Shown here: in pieces, positions 1,011 to 63,769 of the stretch
Numbering within the stretch: position 1 is the first letter of the stretch
Layout of the letters: each line of letters opens with the position of its first letter
Source of the DNA: Jatrophihabitans sp.
Lineage (GTDB): Bacteria > Actinomycetota > Actinomycetes > Mycobacteriales > Jatrophihabitantaceae
NCBI RefSeq assembly: GCF_036389215.1
Contig: NZ_DASVQG010000144.1
Span: forward strand, 4,300 to 68,299
Direction: 5' to 3'
DNA length: 64,000 nt
Made by a program: the position numbers and the translations under genes
Notes under the pieces: generated by a model
Told to the model about the DNA's origin: nothing
Seen by the model: the letters and a program-made list of their open reading frames with translations, nothing else
The model's database searches: none

Positions 1011-1477
1011 TGATGGTCCTCGGCTGAAGAGAGAGATGACCAGTGACAAGGCTGGACATGCCGGGAGCGATCGCCGAAGCTGATGCGCAGATTCGGCTTG
1101 CCCCCGGTTGCTTGGACTAGACGCTACGAACACCAGGTTGGCTCGGCAATACCGGCGCTTCCATGGCATGAAACTCGGCCGTCAGAGCGTGAGAGCTGAC
1201 CAGCTGTACGGGAAGGTTGGTGCGAAGCCGACATCGGCCCCAGCTCGCGCACCACCAGCGGGTCCGCGTTCAGGGCACGAGATCTGTTCGCTGCCACCAG
1301 CTGATGTGATGGTCGCAGTAATGACGCCATGAGGTGCTGCCGTACCTGACGCCGTTGCGGCAGGAATACCCGCCGAGGCTCCGCGCTCGGATGCCGAGCA
1401 CCCAGACTGGTGAGACGACAAGGACGGGGTCCGGTACCCAGCGCCGTCCGAGGTTGTAGCGCGGGGGAAGGGGCGCC

Positions 1478-2482: not shown

Positions 2483-2659
2483 ATATGGGCAGACCTATCT
2501 GAGAGCGCAGCTGCCGGCCGCACGTCACGCGAGGCGTAGAAGTCACTGCCCCGGCGGATGCGCAATGGGCACAACGGTGCGGATCGATGCAATCGTCGGC
2601 TCCTCGCCCCCAGGGACCGGACAATCATCGGCAGCACAACCGCACAGATGGGAAGACCG

Positions 2660-4960
2660 ATGTTTCGTCCGCGGCTGAGATCGGACTACACATCGGTATG
2701 CCTGGATTCCCCGGACGGCATTTCCGTGTTGATCACGGGAGAAGCTCGTACCCTGCTCATCGAGGGCGCGGTCACCGCGGATCTGCTGGAATTACTGGAC
2801 GGCACCCGGCACACCCACGAGCTCGTACAGCAGTTGAGCGAGCGGTATCCGCCGAGAGCGGTCGGCGGGGCGATACGCAGGCTGACCGAACTCGGAGTTC
2901 TCGCCAGTGGCGGCACTGCCCAGGACTCGAGGACAGCGGCTGCCTGGGATGCCCGCGGCACCGATCCAGATCTGGCAGAGGCCTGGCTGCGCAACGGCCG
3001 GGTCACCCTGATCGATGCGGGGGCGCCGACCGCGGCGGTCATCGCTCGAGCCCTGGCTGACGCCGGCCTGGCGGTGGACCGGATCGAGTCGCACGCGATC
3101 ACTGCCAGCCGGCTCGCCGCGGCCGATCCGGGCAGTGAACTGGTGGTGCTGCCCCGGTCCTACGTCGATCCGATCCTGGCGGGGATCAACCAGGTCTGCC
3201 TCGACCTCCAACGGCCGTGGACGCTGGCCCGCCCCCATGGGCTCACCCTCCTGCTGGGCCCCCACCTGGTTCCCGGCCGCACCGGCTGCTGGCAGTGTTT
3301 ACTCCAGCGGTGGCAGGAGAATGAGCAGCTGGAGAACTATGTTGCCGCGCAACGGCCACAACTGCCGCGGCTGGATTCAGCCAGGGCCGCGCACGCCTCG
3401 ACGGCGTCGGTGCTGGCGGGCCTGCTTCTGGCTGAACTGCCGGTGCTGGCTGTGAACCGTAGCTCACCTCGGATCACCGGACGCATGATCGCGCTCGACA
3501 CGCGTGATCTGACGGCGAGCGAGCATGTCCTCGTGCATCAACCCCAGTGCCCGGCCTGCGGAAGCCCTGAGCTGGTGCGGCAAGCCACCGGGCGCGTGGT
3601 GATCTCCTCGGCCGCGAGCACCAGCGACGACAGGGAACCGTCACGGACCCTGAGCCTGGCCGAGACCTGGGACCGGCTGCAGCATCACGTCAGCCGGTAT
3701 TTCGGCGTGGTTTCCAGGCTTGCGCCGGTAGCGATGGCCGGTGCTGCCGGTACTCATACCTACAGTGCTGTGCACAACTTCGCACTTGCGCGAAGTGCCA
3801 CGACCCTGCGCATGAATCTGCGTGGTCAGAGTGGTGGAAAGGGTCGCACGGACCTGCAGGCCCGGGTGGGCGCCGTCTGCGAGGCGGTAGAGCGTTATTG
3901 CGGCCTGTGGCGGGGTGAGCTACCCACCCGGCAGGCAAGCTATCTCGAACTGGGACCCGAGGAGGCGGTGAACCTCCGCCAGCTACTGCACTATTCCGAT
4001 GACCAGTACGACCAGCGGGAGAAGTTGAATTCCTCGCTGGCTCATTTCCACCGAATTCCACGCCGCGCCCCGGACGACCTGGTGATGAGCTGGACCACCG
4101 GGTGGTCGCTGACCCACCAGGTGGCCCGGGCGATCCCGGCGGCATATTGCTGGTACGGCCATCCCGAACTCGAGAGCCTGGGCGTGACCGGCGCGGACTC
4201 CAATGGTTGCGCGGCGGGCAACACCCTTGCCGAAGCGGTGTTGCACGGTTTCTGCGAGCTGGTCGAGCGGGACAGCGTGGCGTTGTGGTGGCACCATCGA
4301 TCCAGGGTTCCTGGCGTCGACCTGGACTCGTTCGCCGACCCCTGGATCACGCAGTTGCGTCGCCGCTACGAGCAGGACCACCATCGGGACCTGTGGGCGC
4401 TGGACCTCACCGCGGACCTGGGCATTCCCGCGTTCGCGGCTGTGTCGGCATGCCGGGCTCGGCCGACCGAGGACGTCCTGGTCGGCTTCGGCGCCGACCT
4501 CGATGCCGGGGTTGCGCTCAGCCGGGCGATGGCCGAGGTCGATCAGTTCCTGCCGGCGGTTTCCCGATACGAGGCGGGGTCGACCCGGTACGGATTGTCG
4601 GAGCCCGAGGCGCTCCGGTGGTTCATCTCGGTCCGGGTGGCCGAGCATCCCTGGTTGGTTCCGGACCCGGACGTGCCCGCCACCACCGCCGACCGGCACC
4701 CCGACCGGACGTCGCTGGAGGTAGCCGACGGTGTCGCGCACTGTGTCCGCATCGCTGCTGCCGCAGGGCACGAGGTCATCGTGGTCGACCAGTCACGTCC
4801 CGACATCGAGCTGTCGGTCGCCCGGGTGATCGTGCCGGGGCTTCGCCATTTCTGGCGCCGCCTCGGGCCGGGGAGGCTGTGGACGATTCCAGGCCTGCTC
4901 GGCAGGGAGCCACTCGCGGCGTCCGAGCATGAGGTGAATCCGATGAACGTCTTCTTCTGA
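2660..4960 (+). CDS. Fused TOMM/LAP cyclodehydratase (RRE + E1-like C domain + YcaO D domain)
   Basis: Likely start ATG 2660 (GGAAG upstream). Zn-binding pairs GCWQC and PQCPACG; YcaO motifs CEAVERY and DSNGCAAGNTLAEAVLHGFCELVERD; C-terminus EVNPMNVFF typical of azoline-forming YcaO. Confidence 0.93.
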   Translation: MFRPRLRSDYTSVCLDSPDGISVLITGEARTLLIEGAVTADLLELLDGTRHTHELVQQLSERYPPRAVGGAIRRLTELGVLASGGTAQDSRTAAAWDARGTDPDLAEAWLRNGRVTLIDAGAPTAAVIARALADAGLAVDRIESHAITASRLAAADPGSELVVLPRSYVDPILAGINQVCLDLQRPWTLARPHGLTLLLGPHLVPGRTGCWQCLLQRWQENEQLENYVAAQRPQLPRLDSARAAHASTASVLAGLLLAELPVLAVNRSSPRITGRMIALDTRDLTASEHVLVHQPQCPACGSPELVRQATGRVVISSAASTSDDREPSRTLSLAETWDRLQHHVSRYFGVVSRLAPVAMAGAAGTHTYSAVHNFALARSATTLRMNLRGQSGGKGRTDLQARVGAVCEAVERYCGLWRGELPTRQASYLELGPEEAVNLRQLLHYSDDQYDQREKLNSSLAHFHRIPRRAPDDLVMSWTTGWSLTHQVARAIPAAYCWYGHPELESLGVTGADSNGCAAGNTLAEAVLHGFCELVERDSVALWWHHRSRVPGVDLDSFADPWITQLRRRYEQDHHRDLWALDLTADLGIPAFAAVSACRARPTEDVLVGFGADLDAGVALSRAMAEVDQFLPAVSRYEAGSTRYGLSEPEALRWFISVRVAEHPWLVPDPDVPATTADRHPDRTSLEVADGVAHCVRIAAAAGHEVIVVDQSRPDIELSVARVIVPGLRHFWRRLGPGRLWTIPGLLGREPLAASEHEVNPMNVFF

Positions 4961-12574: not shown

Positions 12575-13336
12575 TCAGCCGACATCGATGGCGGCGGCCG
12601 ACTGGTCCATCGGAAAGCTGACACCTGAGTGCTGCGCTATCAGATCGGGCACCCGCGCCTGCCCGCTGCGTTCCACCGTCGACTGAAATGCCTCGGCGAG
12701 CAGGATGGTGATGCCTTGGGTGAGTGCGGTGGTCTCCCGGTCGAGATCCTCCCAGGAGGTGAAGCTGGCTCCTTCGATCGACGGCAAGGTGGTGACCAGG
12801 CGCAGCCCGACCTCATGTACCAGCTCATCGGCCTGCGTCTGGACGTGGTCCAGGATCTCCACCAGGGCCTGCAGTGCCACGCTGGGGGCTACGCCGGCCC
12901 GGCGCAGGGTGAAAGCTGCGCGGAGCAGGCGCGGGCGCGTGGTACGTACGGTGCCGTCATTTCCTCGGGACAGCACGCCGTGCCGAAGCAGGCCGTTCGT
13001 CAGGGCAGGATGGTCCACCCAGAACCGATCGAGGTTCGCGCTGCAGGTCTCGCCCTGCTCCGAGCCGTCGCGCACGCCGAGAATCGACGCTATCGAGACG
13101 AGATTGAACCCCTGGCGCTGGAGATTCTTGATCGCCTCGATGCGCCTGATGTGTTGTCCGTCGTAATAGGCCACCCGGCCGATGCGAGTGGGTTGGGCAA
13201 GCAGCCCACGCGCCTGGTGTGCGCGGATGTTGCGGGCGGACATGCCTACCCGGTGTGCGAACTCTTCCACCGTGAGCCGAATTCCCGGATCGGACAGCTC
13301 GGGACTGACTCCGGATGGCAGAGGAGCAGTCATCAA
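12575..13336 (-). CDS. MerR-family transcriptional regulator
   Basis: LTVEEFAHRVGMSARNIRAHQARGLLAQPTRIGRVAYY N-terminal HTH; no Cys cluster for metal sensing. Confidence 0.85.
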   Translation of the reverse strand: MMTAPLPSGVSPELSDPGIRLTVEEFAHRVGMSARNIRAHQARGLLAQPTRIGRVAYYDGQHIRRIEAIKNLQRQGFNLVSIASILGVRDGSEQGETCSANLDRFWVDHPALTNGLLRHGVLSRGNDGTVRTTRPRLLRAAFTLRRAGVAPSVALQALVEILDHVQTQADELVHEVGLRLVTTLPSIEGASFTSWEDLDRETTALTQGITILLAEAFQSTVERSGQARVPDLIAQHSGVSFPMDQSAAAIDVG

Positions 13337-13438
13337 ACCTACCTAAACAAATGCGCCTGCTGATCGAGCCGACTACGCAGCGGATTCATCGCGTCGCTGT
13401 CTGCAGCGGCAGACTCTACCGCCGAATCAGTTAAATGC

Positions 13439-13462
13439 ATATACGACTCCTGCTGTCTGTTT
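13439..13462 (+). promoter_or_regulatory. Weak ARE-like site upstream of the RiPP precursor
   Basis: ATATACGACTCCTGCTGTCTGTTT; about 4 mismatches to the AWAC-N10-GTWT-type gamma-butyrolactone receptor consensus as I recall it. Confidence 0.25.
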
Positions 13463-13646
13463 CGTGGGTTCTGACGGTAAGCGGTGACCTTTGCACGGAT
13501 CGAAGCTCGCGCCGGCGAGTGGAGCGGCGGCGGCCGGTGTAATCGGGACCGGTTCCTAGCCAGTGCATCCCTGCACAGCGACGATGGCCAGCAGCAGCTC
13601 GCGGCGGCAGCCACTCGGCTCCGGCGCATCTTCGGAGGAGACCACC

Positions 13647-14012
13647 ATGGAACCCAGCAGCAGGTCCAAATTCGTCACGGCTTACAGCCGCCTGGTCGCA
13701 GATGTGTGGGCCGAGCCGGACAAGGAACGACAATTGGAAGCAGATCCGCGCGGGTTTATCGCCGGGTACGGGTTGGAGGTCCCGGACGGGGTGAAAGTGA
13801 CGTTGCTCCGCGATGTCGGCGATGCCGAACCGGACCTTGACCAGCAGGTCCAGACCTGGCTCCAAGCACCGGAAACCGGGGAACTCATCCTGGTCGTCCC
13901 GGCCCTGGACCCGGTGGCGGAGTCCGAGCTCGACGAGCACGAGCTCGACGCCGTGGTGGCCGGACTGGATCTGAGCTGCGCCTGCTGCTGTCCATGCTGC
14001 TGTACGACCTGA
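13647..14012 (+). CDS. NHLP (nitrile-hydratase-like leader) RiPP precursor; predicted core LDLSCACCCPCCCTT
   Basis: Strong RBS GGAGGAG before ATG 13647; leader with RLVADVWAEP..LEADPRG..GYGLEVP; double-glycine-like motif ELDEHELDAVVAG followed by a 15-aa core containing 7 Cys. Confidence 0.92.
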   Translation: MEPSSRSKFVTAYSRLVADVWAEPDKERQLEADPRGFIAGYGLEVPDGVKVTLLRDVGDAEPDLDQQVQTWLQAPETGELILVVPALDPVAESELDEHELDAVVAGLDLSCACCCPCCCTT

Positions 14013-14053
14013 GGCCACCAGTCCCGGCCCGGCACAGCAACAGCTGAGACAGC

Positions 14054-14096
14054 ACAGCGAGGACAGCAACAGCGAGGACAGCAACAGCGAGGACAG
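14054..14096. repeat. 15-bp tandem repeat (ACAGCGAGGACAGCA) x about 3
   Basis: Read directly; the third copy is incomplete. Confidence 0.9.
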
Positions 14097-14109
14097 AAAT
14101 GGCCAGGAC

Positions 14110-14143
14110 AAAGCAAGAGGCCCGTCGCCTGGGCGAACGGACC
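14110..14143 (-). terminator. Probable intrinsic terminator after tRNA-Asp
   Basis: Imperfect hairpin GGTCCGTTCGCC-CA-GGCGACGGGCC followed by TCTTGCTTT on the minus strand. Confidence 0.55.
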
Positions 14144-14149
14144 TGCTTG

Positions 14150-14223
14150 CGACCCCGACGGGACTCGAACCCGCGACCTCCGCCGTGACAGGGCGGCGCG
14201 CTAACCAACTGCGCTACGGGGCC
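14150..14223 (-). tRNA. tRNA-Asp(GTC)
   Basis: GGCCCCGTAGCGCAGTTGGTTAGCGCGCCGCCCTGTCACGGCGGAGGTCGCGGGTTCGAGTCCCGTCGGGGTCG; cloverleaf, anticodon GTC. Confidence 0.97.
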
Positions 14224-14316
14224 TAGAAGGAACCTCTAGACCTGCGTGCTCACCGGCAACTTTCCGGACGAGCCTGCGAAACCATACTACGTGCAGCACC
14301 GATCGTGCCTGCCGCG

Positions 14317-14389
14317 TACCCCCAACGGGATTCGAACCCGTGCTACCGCCGTGAAAGGGCGGCGTCCTAGGCCACTAGACGATAGGGGC
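14317..14389 (-). tRNA. tRNA-Glu(TTC)
   Basis: GCCCCTATCGTCTAGTGGCCTAGGACGCCGCCCTTTCACGGCGGTAGCACGGGTTCGAATCCCGTTGGGGGTA; anticodon TTC. Confidence 0.97.
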
Positions 14390-14483
14390 TTGCTCGAACA
14401 GCCGTCCCAGTTTAGCGAGGCCGCCAAGCTCGCCCGGCACAGGGCCGCGGAGCCGGTCGTGCCGGTGCCGCGTGCGCACCGGC

Positions 14484-15101
14484 TCAGTGCGGCGCCAGCC
14501 CGGTCAGCACCAGCTGCACCACCGTCTCGGGCAGGTTGACCCGGTCAGCCCGGCCGGGCCGGTACCACTCGGTGAGCGAGTTGATCATGCCGAAGATCAG
14601 CCGGGTGGCGACGGCGGCGTCGAGCCGGGAGTCCACGTCGCCGTCGCGCTGGGCCTGCAATACCAGATTGGCCACCAGCTGGTCGAACTCCCGCCGCCGG
14701 CCCAGCGCGGCCAGCTCGGTGGGGCTGTTGCCCCGCACCCGCAGCAGCAAGGTGACGTAGGGCAGCTCGTCGAGCAGCACCGCGACGGTGCCCCGCAGGA
14801 CATGGGTCAACCGGTCCACGGCCGGCCCGGTGGTCGCCCCGGGCTGGGTCAGCACCGCGAACAGCCCGTCCAGCGCCCGGTCCAGGGCCAGCGCGAGCAG
14901 TTGCTGCTTGCCCTGCACGTGGTGATAGATCGAGGACTTGCTCAGCCCCGCGGCGGCAGCCAGGTCCTCCATCGAGGTGCCCTCGTAGCCACGGCTGGTG
15001 AACACCGTCACCGCCACGTCCAGCAGCGTCTCGGTGGTGTAGGCGGGGCGGTTGCCGCGCATCCGCTGGTGCTTGACCTGCTGGCCGCCCGGTTCCGGCA
15101 T
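14484..15101 (-). CDS. TetR/AcrR-family transcriptional regulator (PaaR-like)
   Basis: FTSRGYEGTSMEDLAAAAGLSKSSIYHHV HTH; C-terminus RLIFGMINSLTEWYRP. Confidence 0.9.
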   Translation of the reverse strand: MPEPGGQQVKHQRMRGNRPAYTTETLLDVAVTVFTSRGYEGTSMEDLAAAAGLSKSSIYHHVQGKQQLLALALDRALDGLFAVLTQPGATTGPAVDRLTHVLRGTVAVLLDELPYVTLLLRVRGNSPTELAALGRRREFDQLVANLVLQAQRDGDVDSRLDAAVATRLIFGMINSLTEWYRPGRADRVNLPETVVQLVLTGLAPH

Positions 15102-15115
15102 CGCACCCGCCGCCC

Positions 15116-17539
15116 TCAGTGCGACTTGGCGTCGGCCGGCAGCAACTCATAACGCGGATTGGCCAGCGCAAGGTGACCCTTGTATTCCCCCACAGTGCCG
15201 GTCACCCGGACCATCGAGCCCGGCTCGATCCCGGGAATCCGGGTGCGGCCGAAGAACAGCAGCCGCATGCCCCCGGTGGAGTCGAAGACCTGGGCCTCCA
15301 GCGACTTGCCGGCCGTGGTGCCCACCTGCACGATCTTGATCCGCCCCTCGATGGTGACCCGCTGCTTCCACTTCACCGCCGCGATCGGCAGCACGCCGTT
15401 CTCGTCCGGCTCGGCCGCCAGCTCTGAGCCGGGGTCCGCGTCCTTGCCCGCGGTCACTGCCCGCAGGGGGTGGTCCTCGGCCAGTACCGGTTCGGCGCTC
15501 AGGGCGGGCCGTTCCTTGGCCTTGGCGCGCTGGCGTTCGAGCTCCTGTTCCTGCGCCTCGTTCAGGGTGGTGTCGAAGGGCACGATGGTCGCCGAGACGT
15601 GTGGCAACTTGGCCATGGCGCCGGCGATCCGGTCGGCCGTGCGGTCGTGCAGGATCCGCTGCGAGACCCGCCGGAACGTCCGGCGCGGCAGCAGCACGGT
15701 GACCTCGGCCCGATCGCCCACCACCACGCTCATCGCGGTCTCGGCGACCGCCCGGATCAGCCGGCGGTCGGCGCACTCGACCACTTCGAGCGGAACCCGG
15801 TCACCGAGCCCGCGCTCGATCCAGGACCGCTCCAGGTCCGCGGCCCGGTCCCCGTCGAGGGAGATGTGCACCGCTCGCAGATCGGTCGGGCGCAGGCTGC
15901 CGGCATACCGCAGTCCCCGCACCACGGCCAGATCGAGCCGGTCCACCAGCACCAGCACGACGTGGCGGGGATAGTTCGGCAGCGACGCCCCCTTGCCCAG
16001 CGCGTTCGTCACCAGGTTCAACGCACGCGCCTCGTCACGGTACTGCTGGTTCAACCGCATCAGGACCAGCCACATGATCGGCGCCAGCACCAGTACCAGC
16101 CAGGCGCCCTCGGTGAACTTCACCACCGCCGTGATCAGCACGATGGTCAGGGACAGCCCACCGCCGGAGGCGTTGATCCACCACTTGTGCTGCCAGCCCG
16201 GTTCCTTGTGGATGGTGTGGTATTTCGCCATTCCGAAGCCGGCCAGCGTGAAGCCGGTGAACACCCCGAGCGAGTAGAACGGCACCAGCTTGTCGACGTT
16301 GGCCTTGCCCGCCACCAGCAGCGCGATCGACAGCAGGGTCAGGATGAAGATGCCGTTGCTGAAGGCCAGCCGGTGGCCGCGCCGGGTCAGTTGCCGCGGC
16401 AGGAACGAGTCCTCGGCGACGAAGTTGGCCAGGAACGGAAAGCCGGTGAACGGAGTGTTGGCACCGGTGATGAGGATCAGGGCGGTCGCGATCTGCACGA
16501 CGACGAATCCGGTGTCGCCGAGCCCTCCGTTGCCGAAGGCGGCCCGGGCGACCTGGGAGATGACGGTCGGGCTGCCGCCTTCGAACGGGGCGGCGTGGGT
16601 CTCCATCGACAGCCAGCCGACGCCGCACACCAGGAATGCCAGCATCGCCGACATGATCCCCAGGGTTCGGCGGGCATTCGGCCCGGCCGGGGACTTGAAG
16701 GCGCTGACCCCGTCCGAGATCGCCTCCAGGCCGGTCAGCGACGCACCACCGTTGGCGAAGGCCTTGAGCAGGTAGAAGATCGCCAGCGAGGAGAAGATGG
16801 CGTGCCCCTGGTCGTGGATCGGGAGCTGGTTCTCGCCACCGATCACCCGGTCGGTGCCGTACTTCGGCAGCTCACCGAGCAGCTCGCGGACCACGCCGAT
16901 GACGATGACGATCGTCACCGAAGTGAAGAAGAAGTAGGTCGGGAACGCGAAGGCCTTGCCTGCCTCCCGGATACCGCGCAGGTTGCCGTAGGCCAGCAGC
17001 AGGATGACCACGATGCACAGCTCGACCTTGTACTGGCTCAGCTCGTGCACGGTGGAGGTGATCGCGGCCACCGCGGCGGCGACCTGCACCGCCACCGTCA
17101 CGATGTAGTCGATCAGCAGGGCGACCGCGGCGATCTGGGCAGTCTTGTACCCGAAGTTCTCCCGGCAGACGACGTAGCTGCCGCCGGCCCGGGTGTAGAC
17201 CATGACGACCTCGCGGTAGGAGAGCGTCATCAGGGTCAGGATGATCAGGATGACCGCCGTCATCGGCGCCAGGATGTGGAAGCCGGCCAGCCCGAACACC
17301 CCGAGCAGGACGATCAGCATCTCTTCGGTGCCGTAGGCGGAGGATGAGATGCAGTCCGAGGACAACACCCCGAGCGCCGTCTTCTTCGACAGCTTCTCCT
17401 CGTGCAACTGCGAGGACACCAGCGGCGGCCCGAGCAGCACCCGCTTGACCCGGTAACCCAGCCGCTCCGGAACCGAGACGCTGGCGGCAAGGGCCGGCGC
17501 CGCAGCCTGATCGGTCCGAGTGGACGGGACATGGGTCAT
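15116..17539 (-). CDS. APC-family permease (KimA/YdaO-like) fused to a C-terminal OB-fold domain
   Basis: LSSDCISSSAYGTEE, GGSYVV..ENFG, ALLIDYIVTVAV, GLEAISDGV motifs; C-terminal RVTIEGRIK...DSTGGMRLLFFGRTRIPGIEPG..VRVTG OB-fold. Confidence 0.9.
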   Translation of the reverse strand: MTHVPSTRTDQAAAPALAASVSVPERLGYRVKRVLLGPPLVSSQLHEEKLSKKTALGVLSSDCISSSAYGTEEMLIVLLGVFGLAGFHILAPMTAVILIILTLMTLSYREVVMVYTRAGGSYVVCRENFGYKTAQIAAVALLIDYIVTVAVQVAAAVAAITSTVHELSQYKVELCIVVILLLAYGNLRGIREAGKAFAFPTYFFFTSVTIVIVIGVVRELLGELPKYGTDRVIGGENQLPIHDQGHAIFSSLAIFYLLKAFANGGASLTGLEAISDGVSAFKSPAGPNARRTLGIMSAMLAFLVCGVGWLSMETHAAPFEGGSPTVISQVARAAFGNGGLGDTGFVVVQIATALILITGANTPFTGFPFLANFVAEDSFLPRQLTRRGHRLAFSNGIFILTLLSIALLVAGKANVDKLVPFYSLGVFTGFTLAGFGMAKYHTIHKEPGWQHKWWINASGGGLSLTIVLITAVVKFTEGAWLVLVLAPIMWLVLMRLNQQYRDEARALNLVTNALGKGASLPNYPRHVVLVLVDRLDLAVVRGLRYAGSLRPTDLRAVHISLDGDRAADLERSWIERGLGDRVPLEVVECADRRLIRAVAETAMSVVVGDRAEVTVLLPRRTFRRVSQRILHDRTADRIAGAMAKLPHVSATIVPFDTTLNEAQEQELERQRAKAKERPALSAEPVLAEDHPLRAVTAGKDADPGSELAAEPDENGVLPIAAVKWKQRVTIEGRIKIVQVGTTAGKSLEAQVFDSTGGMRLLFFGRTRIPGIEPGSMVRVTGTVGEYKGHLALANPRYELLPADAKSH

Positions 17540-56356: not shown

Positions 56357-58087
56357 TCAGCCGCTCGTCACCGTCTGGCAGCCCAGCGCTGAGTTGGCCC
56401 CCACGCCGATGTTCAGCCCGTACGCGCACAGCTGGTTCGTCCCGGCGGCCAGCGCAACGGTGTAGCTGAACCCGTGGGCGCCGGTGACCGACCAGGCCCG
56501 GTTGACGTCGGCGCGGACCAGCGAGGTCTGGCTCGAGGCAACCTGCTTGCCGTTGCGGGTGACGCTCACGCCGATCGCCTGGGCGGCGTTGCTGAAATCG
56601 AAGGCCCAGCCGGTGACCACGGCCTGGGTGCCCTGGACGGTCACCGAATCGATCCGGCCGAACGGGGACGTCCTCAGCTGTACCACCCGGCACCCTGCCC
56701 GGCCGGTGGAGCCCGGGCCCTTGTTGAGGGCATAGACGCAGACCGTGCTGCTGCCGGCCGGCACCCGGACGGTGACCGTGAAGCCGTGCAGGCCGGTGCC
56801 GTGGAAGAGGTTGTTGATGTCGCGGCGCAGGATGGTGGAGCCCACCGTGCCCGCCAGCGCGCCGTTCACCCGGGCCACCACCGTCAGCGGGGCGTCCGGG
56901 GCGTCGTAGTCGAACGACCAGCCGGTGAGGGTGACGACACTGCCCTTCTGCACGACCTGGTCGACGTAGCCCACCGGAACACCGGGCAGCGGCACGCTCC
57001 GGCAGCCGATCTGGGTGTAGTGGCCGGCGCCCAGGTTCATCGCGTAGGCGCAGACGGTGTTGGCGCCGTTGTTGAGCTTGAGCGACGTGGTGTAGCCGTG
57101 GTTACCGGTGATCTTGTAATAGGCGTTGACGTCCGGGCGCGGCACGGTCGTCTGGACGTAGCTGACCGGGGTGCCGTTGACGTGGAACCAGATCCGCACG
57201 CCGCTGGTGGTGGCGTTCGGGTCGAAGGCCCAGCCGCTGATCTTCAGGTAGCGCCCGTACAGCCGCCAGACGTCCACCCTGCCCAGCGGGTCGTCGTGGG
57301 CGATCCGGCCGCCCGGCATCAGCAGCTTCGCCTCGCCGGTCACGATGCCGGGGATAGAGCCGTAGCTGCCGCCCTGGGTGAGGATCACCACCGCGTACCG
57401 GTCGCCGTTGACCAGGCCGGTGGAGTTGTAGGCAGGCTGCCAGGACGGGTTGTCGCCGCCCCAGCCCTGCTTGACGGCCGCGCCGGTGGTGGCGCTGGGA
57501 ATGCCGAAGAACTGGTAGGTGCCGTCGGAACCGTAGCGGGTCGCGTGGTGCATGGCGTTGCCCAGCCAGTTCCAGATCGCCGGGCGGTGCCGGACCTTGT
57601 TGTAGAAGGTGGCCATGCCGGCAGCCGTGATCCGGGTGCCGCCCCACCAGCCCGACCGCAGCGGGGGCGCGCCCAGGTTGGGAATGTCGAGCGCCTGCTT
57701 GATCCAGGTGATCAGGCCGTCACCACCGGTCCGGCCGTAGAGGGCGCTGGCGGAGGCGTCGTCGGACTGGGTGATCATCTTGTACGCGGTGGTCTGGTTC
57801 CAGCCGGTCATCTGCCCGGTCATCAGCAACCGGGTCGCGATGAACACCTTCATCACCGACTCGGAGGCGTAGTAGCTGTTGTAGTCACCTGCCCCGCTGA
57901 ATGTCCCGGTCTGGGTGTCGATCACCGCCACCGCCGATCGGTAGCCGTGCTGCCGGGCATAGTTGACAGCATTGGTCGCCTGGCTGCCGACCGAGGCCGC
58001 AGCCGGCGCGGGCACCGTCACCGCACTGATCAAGCCGATCACCAGAGCCAGTCCGCTGGCTCCGGCCAGCACCGCCTTTACGCGCAT
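56357..58087 (-). CDS. Secreted class-A beta-lactamase-like serine hydrolase with three C-terminal beta-rich repeats
   Basis: Signal peptide; SVMK (SxxK), SDD, KQGW; repeats of G.VD...GWAFD...R.DVN...G.HG. Confidence 0.8.
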   Translation of the reverse strand: MRVKAVLAGASGLALVIGLISAVTVPAPAAASVGSQATNAVNYARQHGYRSAVAVIDTQTGTFSGAGDYNSYYASESVMKVFIATRLLMTGQMTGWNQTTAYKMITQSDDASASALYGRTGGDGLITWIKQALDIPNLGAPPLRSGWWGGTRITAAGMATFYNKVRHRPAIWNWLGNAMHHATRYGSDGTYQFFGIPSATTGAAVKQGWGGDNPSWQPAYNSTGLVNGDRYAVVILTQGGSYGSIPGIVTGEAKLLMPGGRIAHDDPLGRVDVWRLYGRYLKISGWAFDPNATTSGVRIWFHVNGTPVSYVQTTVPRPDVNAYYKITGNHGYTTSLKLNNGANTVCAYAMNLGAGHYTQIGCRSVPLPGVPVGYVDQVVQKGSVVTLTGWSFDYDAPDAPLTVVARVNGALAGTVGSTILRRDINNLFHGTGLHGFTVTVRVPAGSSTVCVYALNKGPGSTGRAGCRVVQLRTSPFGRIDSVTVQGTQAVVTGWAFDFSNAAQAIGVSVTRNGKQVASSQTSLVRADVNRAWSVTGAHGFSYTVALAAGTNQLCAYGLNIGVGANSALGCQTVTSG

Positions 58088-58195
58088 CTGCTGCCCATCT
58101 CCTGTCCGGCCGGACGGTGTTGTCCGGCGGTGCCTTTCGCCGTGGTGCCGTGGTGCCGTGGTGCTGTGGTGCCTTTCCCTGTGGTGCCGTGGGGC

Positions 58196-59005
58196 TCAGC
58201 CTGTGGTGCCGGTGCTGCTGTCCGCGTGCGGTCGGGTACCGGCCCACCCTGGCTTGGGTCGCCAGCCGCGCTCGCCGACCAGCAGGATCAGGGTTGCCAG
58301 CAGCAACACGCCGGTGCCTGAGCTGAGCCCCGCCGCCGCATAGGCCAGCCCGCCGGCGAGCAACCCCTCGATGAGCATGACGGCGCGCAGCGAGACCGGT
58401 TCGAGCTTGCTCATCCGCAGGTGCAACTGCCGCAGCGCCGGTCCGGACCGGCACCGGGCGCTGAGCAGCACGGCCAGTCCGCGCACCAGGCCGAACACCG
58501 TTCCGCAGGCCAGCGCCAGCGCCGGTGATCCGGTCAGCGCGGCCAGCGCCACCACCAGGTAGGTCGCCGCGGTCATGATGTAGGTGGCGAAGCCGATGCC
58601 GATCTGCGCGCCGAAGCCGGCCGCGTACAGCCAGCGGCGATAGCGGGTCAGCCAGAGCTCGTTGACCTGGCGGGGATGCAGCGGCAGCTGGAATCCGGCC
58701 AGCCGCCGGTCCGCCGCGAGTGCGACCAGGCAGGCCAGCACGGCGATCCACAAGGCGGCCACCCGGTGATCGGCCAGCGGCCGCAGGACTAGTGCGAGCA
58801 GGCCGCTTGCGGACCCGAGCGCCACCCCGCCGAGCACCGAGCCCAGCACGAACCAGAGCGTGGTGAGCCAGTACCGGTTGCCGCGCGAGCGCTCGGAGAG
58901 CGGGTTGATGGCCGAGATCATCGACAGCCCGCACGGGGACCAGGTGCCGCGCGCTCCGGACACCGCCGCGATCAGCAGCGCGCCCGCTGCCAGCGCGCCG
59001 GTCAT
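58196..59005 (-). CDS. MauF/CcdA-like membrane protein
   Basis: Start ATG 59005 overlaps the upstream stop; TWSPCGLSM, RQVNELW, GFGAQIGIGF; multi-TM. Confidence 0.7.
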   Translation of the reverse strand: MTGALAAGALLIAAVSGARGTWSPCGLSMISAINPLSERSRGNRYWLTTLWFVLGSVLGGVALGSASGLLALVLRPLADHRVAALWIAVLACLVALAADRRLAGFQLPLHPRQVNELWLTRYRRWLYAAGFGAQIGIGFATYIMTAATYLVVALAALTGSPALALACGTVFGLVRGLAVLLSARCRSGPALRQLHLRMSKLEPVSLRAVMLIEGLLAGGLAYAAAGLSSGTGVLLLATLILLVGERGWRPKPGWAGTRPHADSSTGTTG

Positions 59006-61296
59006 ACCGGCACCACCGTCCAGTCGGCGTCCTCGTCCTCGGACACCGTCCGGCCGCCCAGCATGGCCGGCGCGGCGGCGGAGTCGGGACGGGCGGCGTA
59101 CACCGTGTAGGTGTGGGTGCCGGGCAGGTCGGCCAGGGTGATGTCGAAACCGGCTCCGGCAGCGCCGGTGAGCTCTGGATGATCGAGCCCGGTCTGGTGC
59201 CGCGACAGCGCGGCGCCGTCGCGGAAGACGGTCAGTGCCAGCCGGCTGGCGGGCCGGTCCGGGTCGTAAGCCCAGCCGGTGATCCGGACGGTGTCGCCCA
59301 TCCGGCGCACCGACTCCACCAGGCCGAGCGGGCCCGACTGGTTCACCCGGACGGTGTGCCGGCCGATCGGCGGGATGCCCTCGGCGCTCTTGCCGTCGTC
59401 GCCCTCGTCCTGGCTGAAGGCGTCCTGGCCGAGGGCATAGGCGGTGTAGGTGTGGACCCCGGTGCCGGCCGGGATCGTGAAGTCGAAGGCCCGCAGGCCG
59501 GCGGCACGGTCGAAGGCGGCCGGATCGGACCGGGCCGGGTACCAGTGCAGGGTGTGCTCGTCCTCGAACACCGCCACGGCGGGAGCGGCGCCGGCCGGAT
59601 CGGTGTCGGCAACCCAGCCGACCAGCCGCACGCCGGTGCCGGCGGCGGTGACCGAGTCCAGCCGGCCGGACAGCCGGGCCGGGGCAACGGCAACGGCAGC
59701 GGCAACGGCAACGGCAGCGGCCGGAGCGATGCCCGCCGGAGCCACCGCCGGCTTGGAAGCCGGCACCACCACGGTGCGCTGGGCCAGGAAGGCGTTGCTG
59801 ATGCCGCCGCCGGCGTCGAGCGCCCAGACCCGGTAGATGTGGCTGCCCGGCGTGGTCGGAATGGTGATCTTGAAACCGTGGATTCCGGTGATCTTGAAGG
59901 CGGCGTTGACGTCCTCGCGGTTCACGGTCGTCCTGGTGTCCGGAAGGCGGATGCCGTCCTGGAACACCGCGATGCCGATCGAGACGGTGGGCACGTCCTT
60001 GTCGAAGGCCCACCCGGTCAGCACCACGCTGGTGCCGATCGCGACCGCGGAGTCGAGGTAGCCGGTCGGCGCCACTCCCGGGGGAGCGGGCACCATCACG
60101 GTGCGCTGGGCCAGGAAGGCGTTGCTGGTGCCGCCGCCGGCGTTGAGCGCCCAGACCCGGTAGGTGTGGGTGCCCGGCGTGGTCGGGACGGTGATCTTGA
60201 AGCCGTGGATTCCGGTGATCTTGAACGCTGCGTTGACGTCCGCGCGGTTCACGGTCGTCTTGGTGTCCGGAAGGCGGATGCCGTCCTGGAACACCGCGAT
60301 GCCGATCGAGGTGCTGGGCACGTCCTTGTCGAAGGCCCACCCGGTCAGCACCACGCTGTTGCCGACAGCGACGGCGGAATCCAGGTAGCCGGTCGGTGCC
60401 ACCCCGGGATTGACCGTGATGCCGCGGCCGCCGAGGCGGGGGTTGGTGCCGGCCGGGCCGATGTTGATCGCCCACACGCTGTAGTAGTGGTAGCCGTTGG
60501 TCGCGGTGAAGCTGATGTCGTAACCGTGCTGGCCGGTGACGTGCCGGGCGCTGTTGACGTCCGGCCGGGGCTTGTTGGCGGCGTACGCCCGCAGGAACTT
60601 GCCGTCCTGATAGATGTGGACGGTGAGCGAGGTGCCCGGCGCGTCCGGGTCATAGGTCCAGCCCTTGATGTGCACCGTGTTGGCGGTGCTGGCGATCTGG
60701 TCGACGTAGCCGACCGGGGCCCGGTTGACGATGCACGGCGCGGAATGGCTGGCGGTGTTGTTGTCGGTGGCGCTGGAACTGGAGCAGGTGCCGCCGAACT
60801 GCACCCACGGCGGCGTGCAGGAGACCACCCGGCACAGCACCGGGCCGGTGGATGACCACGGGATCTGGGTGTTGCACTGGCCGTAGCGGAACTGGTTGCA
60901 GGCGACCAGGCGCTGGTCACAGGTGCTCTGGTTGCAGCGGCAGCCGTACCTGCCGTCGCGATAGGCGTTGCAGTCGATGTAGTAGCGGGCGCTGCCGCGG
61001 CAGAAGGAGGAGTTGTCCGCCTTCCACCAGCCACCGATGAAGGAGTCGGGCGGGCAGCTGTTGGAACCACCGTTGATGGTGCAGCAGAACACCGAGTAGC
61101 CGGCGCCGCAGGTGTTGTCGGCACCGCAGACCGAGTCATAGGCGCTGGCCGGCCGGGTCAGGTAACCCCATGGGTCGACCGCCAGCGCGGCACCGACCAG
61201 GGCCGCGCCGCCCAGGAACCCGCGGCGGCTGGCCAGCAGCCGCTCGGTCCGCTCGGCAACCCGGTTGACGATCCGCTCGGCCAGGCTAACCGGCAT
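59002..61296 (-). CDS. Tat-exported Cys-rich (MauA/MADH light-chain-like) protein fused to five beta-rich surface repeats
   Basis: SRRGFL twin-arginine motif; 16 Cys in about 135 aa, including NSCPPDS..GGWWKA...YYIDC; C-terminal repeats shared with the neighbouring serine hydrolase. Confidence 0.75.
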   Translation of the reverse strand: MPVSLAERIVNRVAERTERLLASRRGFLGGAALVGAALAVDPWGYLTRPASAYDSVCGADNTCGAGYSVFCCTINGGSNSCPPDSFIGGWWKADNSSFCRGSARYYIDCNAYRDGRYGCRCNQSTCDQRLVACNQFRYGQCNTQIPWSSTGPVLCRVVSCTPPWVQFGGTCSSSSATDNNTASHSAPCIVNRAPVGYVDQIASTANTVHIKGWTYDPDAPGTSLTVHIYQDGKFLRAYAANKPRPDVNSARHVTGQHGYDISFTATNGYHYYSVWAINIGPAGTNPRLGGRGITVNPGVAPTGYLDSAVAVGNSVVLTGWAFDKDVPSTSIGIAVFQDGIRLPDTKTTVNRADVNAAFKITGIHGFKITVPTTPGTHTYRVWALNAGGGTSNAFLAQRTVMVPAPPGVAPTGYLDSAVAIGTSVVLTGWAFDKDVPTVSIGIAVFQDGIRLPDTRTTVNREDVNAAFKITGIHGFKITIPTTPGSHIYRVWALDAGGGISNAFLAQRTVVVPASKPAVAPAGIAPAAAVAVAAAVAVAPARLSGRLDSVTAAGTGVRLVGWVADTDPAGAAPAVAVFEDEHTLHWYPARSDPAAFDRAAGLRAFDFTIPAGTGVHTYTAYALGQDAFSQDEGDDGKSAEGIPPIGRHTVRVNQSGPLGLVESVRRMGDTVRITGWAYDPDRPASRLALTVFRDGAALSRHQTGLDHPELTGAAGAGFDITLADLPGTHTYTVYAARPDSAAAPAMLGGRTVSEDEDADWTVVPV
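59763..60407 (-). repeat. Near-identical 327-bp (109-aa) internal tandem duplication
   Basis: VAPTGYLDSAVA.G.SVVLTGWAFDKDVP...SNAFLAQRTV twice; offset 327 bp measured at AGGTAG. Confidence 0.92.
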
Positions 61297-61828
61297 GCTG
61301 CACCTCGATCCGTTCCAGAACCTCGTTGGCCCGTTCGGCCAGCCGGACCGCCTGCCGGTGCGAGCCGATCACCACGTACAGGCAGAACGGCCGGTTCGCC
61401 TCGGTGAAGAAGTGCTGGAAGCCGGCCTGGCCGGCGACCCGGCGCTGCATGCCGTTCGGATTGAACTGACCCGGCCGCACCCGCGGCACGCCGCGCGGGG
61501 AGTACAGCGCCGTGCCCAGGCAGTCCGGCCCGAACTCGAGCAGCGCGACGAAGATGTTGTCAGGTCCCATCCGCTCGACCGCGCCGGTGCCGTAGTCGCC
61601 ACGCGAGGCAGGCAGCGCGAAGTTGGCCAGATGCAGGACGGGATGGCTCAGCTCGCCGGGCCAGCCGGTGGCGGTGGAGCGGGTGGACGGGGCCCGCAGC
61701 GCCGCGCCGGGCTCACCCACCGCGCCTGGCTCACCCACCGTGCGCCGGTACAGCCGCCCCTCCCAGCGCGCCGGGAGCGCGACGGCAAGGCCGTGGCCGG
61801 TGAGCCGGTTCTCGGTGAGCGGCTTCAT
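61286..61828 (-). CDS. Hypothetical protein in the mau-like operon
   Basis: Start ATG 61828 overlaps the upstream stop; LHLANFALP..RGDYG, ALLEFG, QHFFTEANRPFCLYVVIG. Confidence 0.75.
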   Translation of the reverse strand: MKPLTENRLTGHGLAVALPARWEGRLYRRTVGEPGAVGEPGAALRAPSTRSTATGWPGELSHPVLHLANFALPASRGDYGTGAVERMGPDNIFVALLEFGPDCLGTALYSPRGVPRVRPGQFNPNGMQRRVAGQAGFQHFFTEANRPFCLYVVIGSHRQAVRLAERANEVLERIEVQHAG

Positions 61829-62574
61829 GGTCGCTCGTCCTGCTCGGCCGTGGCGTACAGGCTCGGGTCCTGCGGGCCGATGCCGGCGCTCAGCAGGATC
61901 CGGTCGACGTCCCGCTCGCGCCTGCGGTCGGCGTCGGGCTTGTGCGCCAGCGCCGGGTGCCGGCTGTCCTCGACGGACACCCGGATCAGGCCGCTGACCT
62001 GGCTGAAGGACAGCCCCGAGCCCTCGCCCTTGACCCGTCCGGTGCGGCCGTCGGCGACCACCACGTAGGGGGAGCCCGGCACGTCGAAGTCGGCCCACGC
62101 CTGGCTGGACATCACCAGGTCCACGCCGTCCGGGCACAGCTGCGAGAGCACCGACGGGCTCTCCTCCTCAGGGCCCTTGGTGACCACCAGTAACCGGCTG
62201 CCCTGCGGCGTGGTCCAGGACCCGGGCTCGCCGAGCTCGTGCCAGAAGCCGGCGCAACCCTCGCACGTCGAGGACAGGAACGCCACGATGGTGTCGTGCT
62301 CGACGCCGACGGTGCGTACCGAGACGATCTCACCGCGCAGCGAGGTTCCCTCGATGTCGTGCGATTCGGCCCACTCGTCCCGGCCCTCGATCCGCTGCCC
62401 GGCGGCGGGCTCGGGGATGGCCGCCACGGTACGAAACGGTGGCGGGCCGGCCGAGGCGCCGCCGTCGAGCTGGTGCAGCCGGCGCAGCACGGCGGCATAC
62501 CCGCGCAGCAACCCGGCGACCAGCACGCACAGCACGGCCAGGATCACGGTCTCGGCAATCACCAACGCGGTCAT
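61825..62574 (-). CDS. MauD-like membrane-anchored thioredoxin-fold protein
   Basis: Start ATG 62574; N-terminal TM, FLSSTCEGC (CxxC), VPGSPY. Confidence 0.8.
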   Translation of the reverse strand: MTALVIAETVILAVLCVLVAGLLRGYAAVLRRLHQLDGGASAGPPPFRTVAAIPEPAAGQRIEGRDEWAESHDIEGTSLRGEIVSVRTVGVEHDTIVAFLSSTCEGCAGFWHELGEPGSWTTPQGSRLLVVTKGPEEESPSVLSQLCPDGVDLVMSSQAWADFDVPGSPYVVVADGRTGRVKGEGSGLSFSQVSGLIRVSVEDSRHPALAHKPDADRRRERDVDRILLSAGIGPQDPSLYATAEQDERP

Positions 62575-63107
62575 CGGGCGACCTCCAACTGTGCCGCGGC
62601 TGTGAGAAGTTCGGGAAGTGCCGTCATCACGAGGTAGGCCAGGTAAGCCAGCACGGCGGCGGCCAGCAGCAGCGCCGATGCGGTCACCGGAGCCTGGCCG
62701 AACCGGCTGATCAGCGTGCCGGCAGGGGCGATCAGGGCGACCACGCCCGCCAGCATGCAGCTCAGGTTGACCGCGGTGTGCCAGTGGCTGACCGCCACCG
62801 GCTTTGCGAAGCAGGCGCAGTCCTGCCCTGACTCGATGCTCATCATGCGGGCCGACAGCGCCGCGAGGACCAGATAGGCGAGCGCGATGGAAGCGGCCGC
62901 GACGCGGCCCCCGGCCAGCAGCGCCAGGGCCGCGACGGCTAGTTCCACGGCACCGGAAAGCCGGTTCGCCGCCTTGGCGCCGAGCCGGTCGGCACCGGGA
63001 ATGCCCGCCGCGGAAAGGGCTGAACGGATCGGTGCGGGTTGCCGGATCTTCGCCAGACCAGCCGCTGCCAGCAGCAGGGCGGCTGCGCTCACCAGAGAAA
63101 TCAACAC
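62571..63107 (-). CDS. MauE/DoxX-family redox-associated membrane protein
   Basis: LAAAGLAK, DCACF, HTAVNL; 4-5 TM segments. Confidence 0.85.
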   Translation of the reverse strand: MLISLVSAAALLLAAAGLAKIRQPAPIRSALSAAGIPGADRLGAKAANRLSGAVELAVAALALLAGGRVAAASIALAYLVLAALSARMMSIESGQDCACFAKPVAVSHWHTAVNLSCMLAGVVALIAPAGTLISRFGQAPVTASALLLAAAVLAYLAYLVMTALPELLTAAAQLEVAR

Positions 63108-63208: not shown

Positions 63209-63769
63209 TCAGCCGCCTCGGACGACGACCCGTGTCACGCGGAACCGGCCGTCCGGCTGCTTGCTGACGGTGACGTCGATGAGCTTTCCGTTGCCCTGGT
63301 ACCCGAAGACCGTGGGCCCGTCGACGCCGTCGCGCGGCAGGTAGACCGCGGTGCTGCCGGTCGTTGCCAGCAGGCTGCGGGTCAGCGACTCAGGCACCGC
63401 ATTCGGCAGCACGCAGGCGATCGCCTCGGCTGCGTTGCCGGCGCTCAGCGCGCCCAGGTAGGCATCTGCCGCGTTCTGCGCGGCGTCCATGCCGCTGCAC
63501 AGGTGGGCCGGGACGGTGACCGTGCTCGGCGGCGGGTGCAGCACCGCCAGGCTGGTAGCGGCCGGTGCGCTGGGGCTCGGGGTGGTGCTGGCGGGCAGCG
63601 TGCTCGCCGGTTGGGTGCTGGCGGCTCGGGTGCTGGCGGGCGAGGACCGCACCGTCGCTGGTGGCGAGGTGGTCAGCTGGTGCGCGGTGCTGCTGTGTGA
63701 ACCGTCGCAGCCGGCCACCGCGAGGAGGAGCAGTACGCCGGCCAGTGCCGAGCGCCGGTCAAGCACCAT
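63209..63769 (-). CDS. Putative lipoprotein
   Basis: Lipobox VAG-C, Ser/Thr/Pro linker, small C-terminal domain with a Cys pair. Confidence 0.7.
   Translation of the reverse strand: MVLDRRSALAGVLLLLAVAGCDGSHSSTAHQLTTSPPATVRSSPASTRAASTQPASTLPASTTPSPSAPAATSLAVLHPPPSTVTVPAHLCSGMDAAQNAADAYLGALSAGNAAEAIACVLPNAVPESLTRSLLATTGSTAVYLPRDGVDGPTVFGYQGNGKLIDVTVSKQPDGRFRVTRVVVRGG

Follow-up and report, generated by a model that had tools for sequence, protein, structure and literature searches.

A 64,000-nucleotide stretch of Jatrophihabitans sp. DNA (contig NZ_DASVQG010000144.1; the whole stretch is referred to below as the window), which originates from a biocrust metagenome, contains five adjoining genes, g1 to g5, that appear to form a dedicated redox relay for the oxidative folding of a cysteine-rich protein displayed on the cell wall, a reading to which a probability of roughly 0.6 is assigned. 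Three of the genes encode homologues of MauE, MauD and MauF, accessory proteins that help methylamine dehydrogenase (MADH) to mature. The other two are g4, which encodes a protein with a twin-arginine translocation (Tat) signal, a 16-Cys domain (the head) and a series of repeats, and g3, whose product is a small soluble protein. The requirement of MauD, MauE and MauF for the small subunit of MADH has been known since the 1990s, while the chemistry behind it stayed open, and it took until 2026 for MauE to be shown to be a DsbB-like oxidase. Here, the membrane accessory set of MauE, MauD and MauF has probably been taken over for a different, Tat-exported client that is held at the wall, and we infer this role in maturation from homology and gene linkage.

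Organization and distribution of the cassette

The five genes are arranged head-to-tail on the minus strand and span positions 63107 to 58196 of the window (Table 1). ATGA overlaps are found at the g1/g2, g2/g3 and g4/g5 junctions, and g3 and g4 share an 11-nt overlap; the five genes are therefore almost certainly translated as one unit. A preliminary description of the window had put five coupled genes here, and its coordinates, its count and the motifs DCACF, CEGC and WSPCG (in g1, g2 and g5) were all correct.

Table 1. Features of the cassette, of the downstream gene and of related loci. Positions are those of the window unless a locus is named.
Feature	Position	Strand	Description	Basis
g1	62571..63107	-	MauE-family membrane protein, 178 aa, motif D-C97-A-C99-F	Pfam PF07291
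g2	61825..62574	-	MauD-like protein, 249 aa, motif C104-E-G-C107	hhalign vs MauD
g3	61286..61828	-	Soluble 180-aa protein of an uncharacterised family, without signal peptide	
g4	59002..61296	-	Tat-exported protein, 764 aa, 16-Cys domain and repeats	
g4, residues 1-52	61141..61296	-	Long Tat signal peptide, LAERIVNRVAERTERLLASRRGFLGGAALVGAALAV ... PASA|Y	TIGR01409
g4, residues 53-190	60727..61140	-	16-Cys domain (head), 138 residues	
g4, residues 193-764	59002..60720	-	Five repeats of ~110 aa each	Repeat alignment
g5	58196..59005	-	MauF homologue, 269 aa, polytopic membrane protein, DsbD_2 superfamily, motif W-S-P-C25-G	
Downstream neighbour	56357..58087	-	576 aa; signal peptide, weak class-A beta-lactamase-like region, three g4-type repeats	
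TGA in g5 relatives (examples)	L078:6723-6725; L080:6487-6489; L084:6762-6764		In-frame TGA, 30 loci within L033-L084	

Relatives of the set were sought by a pattern scan with one genome per species, in which at least 600 stretches matched; 579 of these encode a relative, and the best 80 were examined by group. All scan matches listed belong to the Actinomycetota. The best 80 are distributed over Jatrophihabitans, other Mycobacteriales/Frankiales, Pseudonocardiales, Kineococcus, Nakamurella and Nocardioidaceae, and extend to the Acidimicrobiales (Iamiaceae, Microthrixaceae, Aquihabitans), Nitriliruptorales, Euzebya and Egibacteraceae. The nearest relatives are found in Jatrophihabitans metagenome-assembled genomes (MAGs), which are 85-91% identical to the window across the head.

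Co-occurrence was counted at the 60 loci that have enough flanking DNA. The head is accompanied by g2 and by g3 at every one of these, by g1 at 59 and by g5 at 44, and for this reason the g1-g5 arrangement is far beyond chance. Three gene orders dominate, namely g1-g2-g5-g3-g4 (22 loci), g1-g2-g3-g4-g5 (17 loci, the order seen in the window) and g1-g2-g3-g4 (13 loci), and in all three, thus at 52/60 loci, g3 lies directly upstream of g4. The flanks outside the cassette differ between loci.

Genuine mau clusters keep mauB and mauG adjacent. Among the six-frame open reading frames (ORFs) of the 64-kb window, no relative of MauB, MauG, MauC (amicyanin), MauJ, MauL, MauM or MauN was detected; the same set is absent from 84 related loci, covered up to 8 kb on each side, and the ORFs of the window that were retained by a filter on third-position GC content (GC3) contain no CxxCH motif. 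The earlier remark that MauB and MauG are missing from the window thus holds, and the five-gene set is seen to recur across the Actinomycetota without either of them at its loci.

The MauE-like and MauD-like proteins

The g1 protein matches Pfam PF07291 (MauE) over residues 8-126 with 43.9 bits, the gathering cut-off being 27 (E 3.7e-11), and carries the active-site motif C97-A-C99-F100. A Lys near the first transmembrane helix (TM1), a Glu in TM2 and the motif CGCF(G)/C-G/A-C-F are conserved among 78 relatives of g1. A recent preprint gives as the features of MauE a CxC followed by Phe, a Lys in TM1 and a Glu in TM2, describes the protein as DsbB-like and disulfide-forming, with a CxC active site and the ability to complement DsbB, and reports thiol oxidase activity for two other MauE proteins; according to the same account, most MauE genes occur without MauA (bioRxiv 10.64898/2026.03.05.709764). 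By analogy with these proteins, g1 is predicted to be a quinone-linked thiol oxidase of the DsbB type.

Neither g2 nor g5 of the window has a Pfam or NCBIfam match of its own (for g2, none at E<=0.1, which includes AhpC-TSA/Thioredoxin and the NCBIfam MauD models), and profiles of both families were therefore compared with a genuine mau cluster, that of Methylobacterium (locus L085, with mauF, mauB, mauE, mauD, mauA, mauC, mauJ and mauG among its genes). For the g2 family (alignment A6), hhalign gave 92.4% against Methylobacterium MauD (E 5.2e-7, 111 columns), and the aligned columns take in the CxxC and cis-Pro regions. The g2 protein is anchored in the membrane at its N-terminus, has a core of the thioredoxin type (FLSS-x-C104-x-x-C107-x-x-FW ... 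VPGSPY) and ends in a conserved tail (D..L..AGI.PGDPSLY), and C104 and C107 are invariant in the family alignment. The N-termini of g2 and MauD are alike, both being uncharged with one hydrophobic helix (...G-L-L-R...), and relatives of g2 match Thioredoxin_2, Thioredoxin_7 and Thioredoxin_8 weakly, with a best E of 0.019. The profile comparison identifies g2 as a distant MauD relative, below the equivalog level. The names MauE-like and MauD-like that the two genes had been given can thus be retained, the former on a family match above cut-off together with the C-x-C-F motif, the latter on an anchor, CxxC and cis-Pro layout that is the same as in genuine MauD.

A rearranged form of the cassette is encountered at six loci from Acidimicrobiales/Actinomycetota MAGs (L018, L021, L024, L026, L032 and L041), with g2-g3-g4 on one strand and, convergently downstream of them, g1 together with a second g2-like gene; each of these genomes thus has two MauD-like paralogues.

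The MauF homologue and its selenocysteine form

The g5-family profile (alignment A4) aligns with the genuine MauF of the Methylobacterium cluster (L085:4599-5453) at a hhalign value of 98.5% (E 2.5e-15, 171 columns, 27% identity), and T-W-S-P-C-G stands at the same place in both. In the window the motif reads R-G-T-W-S-P-C-G-L-S-M, and the codon of Cys25 is TGC (58933..58931). Pfam PF13386 (DsbD_2) is matched by 6 of 15 family members, the best E being 5.7e-7. CcdA and DsbD are defined by two membrane-embedded Cys, one in TM1 and one in TM4. Of the original label, MauF/CcdA-like, the first half is borne out, whereas the second applies only at the level of the superfamily, as g5 has a single redox residue and not two.

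At 30 related loci the position of Cys25 is taken by an in-frame TGA (R-S-x-W-S-P-TGA-G-E-S-M), and 25 other loci have TGC or TGT there, in the context WSPCG in 24 cases and SSPCG in one. The 30 are those loci at which the g5 ORF had seemed to start abruptly at G-E-S-M, and they include every one of the 22 full-flank loci whose gene order is g1-g2-g5-g3-g4. The reading frame continues without interruption upstream of the TGA, where it has a start codon and codes for a hydrophobic helix and R-S-x-W-S-P, so that the TGA stands precisely in place of the Cys of TWSPCG. In the stretch from the TGA to the next Met, variation falls at third codon positions (GGN, GAG/GAA, TCG/TCC), which argues for read-through and not for re-initiation at the Met.

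The UGA is followed at a distance of 8 nt by an invariant hairpin, GAUGCU-N4-AGCAUC, which may be an element of the SECIS type, and then by a second hairpin that exists in two versions, CCCGCUC-GGN-GAGCGGG or CUCCCC-GGUC-GGGGAG. The Ser codon within the 3′ arm of the first hairpin is AGC in 30/30 of the genes of the selenocysteine (Sec) type, against a background use of 34%; genes of the Cys type encode Ser, Ala or Thr at that position, with AGC in 1/25. RNAalifold, applied to the 30 segments downstream of the UGA, found the first hairpin and no covariation in its stem, and a comparison of folding energy with synonymous-codon shuffles gave a mild effect, with a mean z of -1.1 for the Sec forms and -0.35 for the Cys forms.

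Genes for selenocysteine incorporation accompany some of these loci. In a Nitriliruptorales MAG (L080), a gene for tRNA-Sec (selC, 504-599) and then genes for SelA (E 1.3e-96), SelB (GTP_EFTU plus SelB-wing_3) and a SelD-type AIRS protein lie directly upstream of the cassette, all within 504-4958, and at another locus (L063) selA and selB are found within 8 kb of the cassette (12772-16292). No Cys-type locus among the loci examined has selA or selB. The UGA-type g5 is put forward as a candidate new family of membrane selenoproteins (Sec-MauF). A catalogue of prokaryotic selenoproteins from May 2026, with 119 families, includes no MauF-like or DsbD_2-like 'WSPUG' family (PMC13188914), and NCBIfam release 20 has no model for Sec-MauF. 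The window's own g5 is the Cys form. The alternation between Cys and Sec at this position marks the residue as catalytic and redox-active, for MauF in general, and is the first direct argument for MauF as a redox catalyst that acts through the TWSP(C/U)G residue.

The 16-Cys head and its fusion partners

The leader of g4 reads S-R-R-G-F-L, a hydrophobic stretch and A-S-A, and passes the Tat model TIGR01409 (19.0 bits versus a cut-off of 16.7). All of the Cys in g4, exactly 16 as had been counted at the outset, fall between residues 57 and 188. The head family is large, with 524 clusters when sequences are grouped at 90% identity and 444 at 50% identity (E<=1e-3), and is covered by no existing Pfam or NCBIfam model. 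The sixteen Cys are invariant or nearly so, and the same applies to N27, C29-P30, G-W38-W39, R52-Y53, D56-C57, R77, F-R-Y-G-Q-C89, C103-R104, P111, T129 and H132. Cys columns vanish in pairs (20 with 136, 11 with 69, 67 with 81), as expected for disulfide partners; these pairs do not map cleanly onto those of the MADH light chain (MauA) in the simplest alignment. An AlphaFold2 (AF2) model of the head, built from a diverse 80-sequence alignment, has a predicted local distance difference test (pLDDT) score of 92.9. A first run on a shallow alignment (A1; 40 sequences with 59-85% identity to the window domain) had given a pLDDT of 40 and was discarded.

Across the family a long Tat leader always stands before the head; the modules on its other side vary and are LGFP repeats, CWB2, ricin-type lectins, B-lectin (the module in most Jatrophihabitans head proteins) and DUF4214. 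In the window protein the place that LGFP, CWB2, ricin or B-lectin modules occupy in relatives is filled by repeats with the motif P-x-G-x-x-D ... G-W-A-x-D ... R-x-D-V ... H-G-F, the third and fourth of which are separated by an Ala/Val-rich linker. These repeats belong to no Pfam family and are probably a beta-sandwich binding or spacer region. As the fusion partners are wall- or glycan-binding modules, the head can be regarded as the 'business end' of a surface-held protein, and the surface display suggested in the preliminary description fits these fusions.

One protein of the 50%-identity library (P0121, 409 aa) combines a 16-Cys head with a C-terminus (CIGCH ... FKTPTLRELAWTAPYMHDG) that resembles the haem domain of a cytochrome c peroxidase or of MauG/RoxA, the match to RoxA-like_Cyt-c (E 7e-4) falling short of the cut-off. 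Either the fusion is genuine, in which case a haem partner is hinted at, or the metagenome contig is a chimera.

Relationship of the head to the MADH light chain

The head had been said to echo the MADH light chain around the first tryptophan of the tryptophan tryptophylquinone (TTQ) cofactor, with no clear second TTQ Trp. No match to PF02975 or to any other Pfam family is obtained for the head at E<=0.1, and hidden Markov model (HMM) and profile queries built on the head retrieved no chain of MADH or of aromatic amine dehydrogenase (AADH) from PDB sequences at E<=10. The PDB matches obtained for the g4 region were generic Tat signals and a chance match to thrombospondin, and were set aside. 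With hhalign, alignment A1 reached 0.75% against a single MauA sequence; the mature domain reached 13.5% against the MauA family, with firm alignment limited to G-x-x-N-C-P-P-G-T. The score of the latter comparison is 24.2, whereas column-permuted MauA profiles score 13.4 ± 2.7 (standard deviation), and 1 in 150 of them reaches 24.2. The value for the full-length precursor (96.9%, E 1.4e-10) was rejected as evidence of homology since its signal comes from the leader. The leader of NosZ, an unrelated Tat protein, gave 95%, against 80% for a single MauA and 62% for the n-region alone; because the unrelated leader scores higher, the leader resemblance to MauA is generic.

In a Foldseek search with the head model, chain L of 2bbk, a MADH light chain, ranked first among 350,542 PDB chains over 126 columns, at a level that is not significant (E 0.87, template modelling (TM) scores 0.33/0.36, root-mean-square deviation (rmsd) 8.4), and ranks 3 and 4 are two further MADH light chains. 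A relaxed alignment places C5, C11, C19 and C29-P-P of the head opposite C23, C29, C38 and C46-P-P of MauA, and W39, C47 and C67-x-C69 opposite Trp57, C61 and C86-x-C88. At or near the position of Trp108, no Trp is conserved in the head family; W95 of the window lies in an insertion that about 4% of sequences have, and the conservation of W112 is 72%.

The proposed echo therefore survives in part, as a weak resemblance that exceeds its null yet is not significant, and the missing second TTQ Trp is now seen to be missing from the family as a whole. A distant common origin of the head and the MADH light chain is considered somewhat more likely than not, though it is not demonstrated; this judgement is supported also by three of the other four genes being homologues of those that mature MauA. 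As the second TTQ Trp is lacking, and MauB and MauG are absent from the window and from the 84 loci, the head does not represent an ordinary TTQ amine dehydrogenase.

The g3 protein

No match to g3 was found in Pfam, NCBIfam or the PDB, profile search included; the protein bears no similarity to MauJ and contains no recognisable cofactor motif. The relatives that a profile search found among 5.8 billion proteins number at least 2636; every one is annotated 'hypothetical' and none carries another Pfam domain, and the protein is never fused. Among the 120 matches listed, the relatives are 157-230 aa in length, nearly all of them 159-187 aa. The protein is a candidate chaperone specific for g4 or, alternatively, a candidate co-exported partner. 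Together with the head it makes two protein families without a Pfam or NCBIfam model.

A model for assembly and the evidence against it

The following scheme starts from three points, as far as sequence comparison establishes them: what the genes are, how they are linked, and that the residue in g5 is of a redox kind. The head of g4 would need about eight disulfides. The g3 protein, which would be cytoplasmic and made 1:1 just before g4, may guard either the leader or the head, as yet unfolded, until the protein is exported by Tat; alternatively, it may pair with the head and be carried out with it. By homology, the CxxC of g2 would introduce disulfides into the head, and g1 would re-oxidise g2 through its C-x-C loop outside the membrane and pass the electrons to the quinone pool. 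The very reactive thiol or selenol of g5 could serve as a counter-current redox or isomerisation partner that reshuffles wrong pairs or returns electrons. Finally, the repeats, or the LGFP, CWB2 or lectin modules of relatives, would hold the product on the wall or on glycan. As to its own activity, the head may be a binding head or a novel redox site.

Several observations weigh against this relay, beginning with the comparisons described above in which the head gives no family-level or significant structural match to MauA. Within ±8 kb, g5 is absent at 16/60 loci and so is not indispensable everywhere, and where it is present C25 (C/U) is its only invariant redox residue, with no second conserved Cys. 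The direction of electron flow is also disputed, as the MauE preprint cites a report of MauE as a reductase (bioRxiv 10.64898/2026.03.05.709764). In g2, and equally in genuine MauD (L085:7337-7954), no positive charge precedes the anchor helix and several follow it (GLLRxxxxLRRLH), an arrangement for which the positive-inside rule predicts a thioredoxin domain in the cytoplasm (N-out/C-in). Moreover, Tat substrates are expected to fold before export, which is awkward to combine with disulfide formation after export. For MauD itself the N-out/C-in prediction conflicts with the usual assumption that the protein acts outside the membrane, and Tat export followed by extracytoplasmic oxidation is equally puzzling for MauA.

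Alternative interpretations

The head may instead be a metalloprotein, with g5 as a transporter or chaperone of a metal such as Cu or Ni and with the g5 Cys/Sec and many of the head Cys as metal ligands, in which case Tat export would reflect cytoplasmic loading of the metal or a complex with g3. The DsbD_2 superfamily includes metal-transporter-like members by Pfam and InterPro naming, which speaks for this interpretation, as do the weak HupE_UreJ_2 match of one g5 relative, the Tat signal of g4, the soluble partner made just before it and the catalogued metal-transport selenoproteins, such as MerT-like proteins and the SO_0444 Cu/Zn efflux family (PMC13188914). However, a MauE oxidase and a CxxC thioredoxin-fold protein amount to thiol-disulfide machinery; the paired loss of Cys columns, the even number of invariant Cys and their MauA-like pattern fit disulfides; and g5 has no conserved His/Cys metal motif beyond the single C/U. 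Metal binding as the purpose of the cassette is thus regarded as unlikely. A second interpretation centres on the invariant G-W-W, which would be the site of a protein-derived cofactor in a new quinoprotein made without MauG; g3 would be a partner subunit or the modifying enzyme, a Cys-Trp or other cross-link might be present, and MauE, MauD and MauF would serve as they do for MADH. W39 aligns with TTQ Trp57 of MauA, the motif CPPGT is common to both proteins, the MADH light chain is the top structural match and g3 is strictly linked; in addition, the invariant polar residues (R52, Y53, D56, R77, R85, Y86, Q88, R104, T129, H132) are more numerous than a purely structural knot needs. Such an enzyme nevertheless seems doubtful, as no oxygenase, flavoprotein or haem protein is found in the cassette or at the 84 loci, no second Trp is conserved (W95 and W112 not being invariant), g3 has no recognisable cofactor motif and the structural similarity is not significant. 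The more specific proposal that the head and g3 form a new extracytoplasmic redox enzyme of Actinomycetota, with a protein-derived or cysteine-based active site of its own, displayed on the wall by lectin or LGFP modules, assembled in dependence on Sec-MauF and either descended from the quinoprotein light chains or a cousin of them that needs neither MauG nor MauB, is speculative and is given a low chance of being correct.

An ordinary MADH or AADH light chain, with mauB and mauG elsewhere in the genome, would likewise be expected to have MauE, MauD and MauF homologues beside a Tat-exported Cys-rich protein. This is very improbable: the head has neither a PF02975 or MADH/AADH HMM match nor an equivalent of Trp108, 570 residues of repeats are joined to it here and LGFP, lectin or CWB2 modules in relatives, and MauB, MauG and MauC, which genuine clusters keep adjacent, are absent within ±8 kb at 84 loci and within 64 kb here. 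The Cys-rich protein could also be imagined as the precursor of a small secreted peptide that is modified by the MauE/MauD-like enzymes, in the manner of peptides that are made by the ribosome and modified after translation (RiPPs), since decRiPPter listed three candidate Streptomyces families with mauE, one of them also with mauD, whose precursors have at least 8 Cys (PMC7794033). Here, however, the Cys are contained in a domain of 138 residues whose fold is predicted with confidence, which comes after a cleavable Tat signal and is permanently fused to large binding modules, and the cassette has no conserved protease or exporter, so that a RiPP-like precursor can hardly be credited.

Comparison with known redox systems

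The cassette resembles the mau cluster of methylotrophic Proteobacteria (mauFBEDACJGLMN) in its MauE, MauD and MauF homologues and in the Tat export of a small Cys-rich domain, and the motifs in common are C-x-C-F in MauE, TWSPCG in MauF and the N-terminal anchor plus CxxC in MauD. It differs in the absence from the locus of the MauB propeller, the di-haem enzyme MauG, amicyanin and MauJ, MauL, MauM and MauN, in the additional linked gene g3, in its Actinomycetota host and in the presence of Sec in many of its MauF members. The head and the MADH light chain have CPPG(T/D) in common, as well as a Trp where Trp57 lies and a comparable Cys spacing over the first half, whereas the head has 16 Cys where MauA has 12, lacks the second TTQ Trp and is fused to wall or glycan modules.

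The MauE preprint portrays a generalist that works with DsbA or MauD, whereas here MauE is locked in an operon with one client and with partners of the MauD and MauF kinds; the Results and discussion of that preprint take up neither MauF nor the family of Cys-rich clients (bioRxiv 10.64898/2026.03.05.709764). The DsbB/DsbA and DsbD/DsbC systems follow a similar logic, in which substrates with many disulfides are served by an oxidase branch together with a second redox protein in the membrane. UniRef names the g5 orthologue of J. endophyticus 'CcdA', and relatives of g5 match DsbD_2, but CcdA and DsbD have two membrane Cys against the one redox residue (C/U25) of g5, and the cassette has no DsbC-like partner. 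With catalogued selenoproteins the g5 relatives have in common the Cys/Sec pair at a redox motif, a UGA followed by a hairpin and, at L080, the Sec machinery; nearest to g5 in the catalogue are membrane metal transporters and a rhodanese/DsbD fusion (PMC13188914). Under the proposed relay, the MauE/MauD/MauF trio would be a portable module whose second client is much the more widespread one, and the system may find use in the production of many-disulfide proteins in Gram-positive hosts.

Neighbouring genes and transcription

The gene downstream of g5 matches Beta-lactamase2 at E 0.025, which is below the cut-off, and each of its three copies of the g4-type repeat has one Cys pair in the repeat alignment. 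A gene with a faint Beta-lactamase2 match and a TIG domain (L001:4458-5801) also flanks the J. endophyticus cassette, and the downstream gene may be functionally linked to the cassette while standing outside its conserved part. The 108-nt spacer between g5 and this gene (58088..58195) contains GGCACCAC/GGCACCACAG-like repeats (ccacggcaccacagggaaaggcaccacagcaccacggcaccacggcaccacggcgaaaggcacc), after which comes a short inverted repeat, CCGGAC-aacacc-GTCCGG. On the other side, the product of the gene upstream of the cassette (63209..63769, minus strand) is 186 aa long and has a signal of the lipoprotein type (LLLLAVAG-C) and a linker rich in Ser, Thr, Pro and Ala; the gene is not a conserved neighbour of the cassette in other genomes. 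A scan for promoter and terminator consensus sequences was uninformative in this DNA, which has a GC content of 70%.

Low-depth coverage of g2 to g5 and of the gene after them comes from rhizosphere metatranscriptome contigs that are 90-99% alike, and weakly suggests that close relatives transcribe the cassette. Depth in these data rises to 144 and 92 at positions 59563..59813, versus about 3-15 elsewhere. This segment is the Ala/Val-rich linker of g4, with its GCC-GTT-GCC repeats, and the jump most likely stems from unrelated low-complexity GC-rich repeats and should not be taken for a feature of the transcript.

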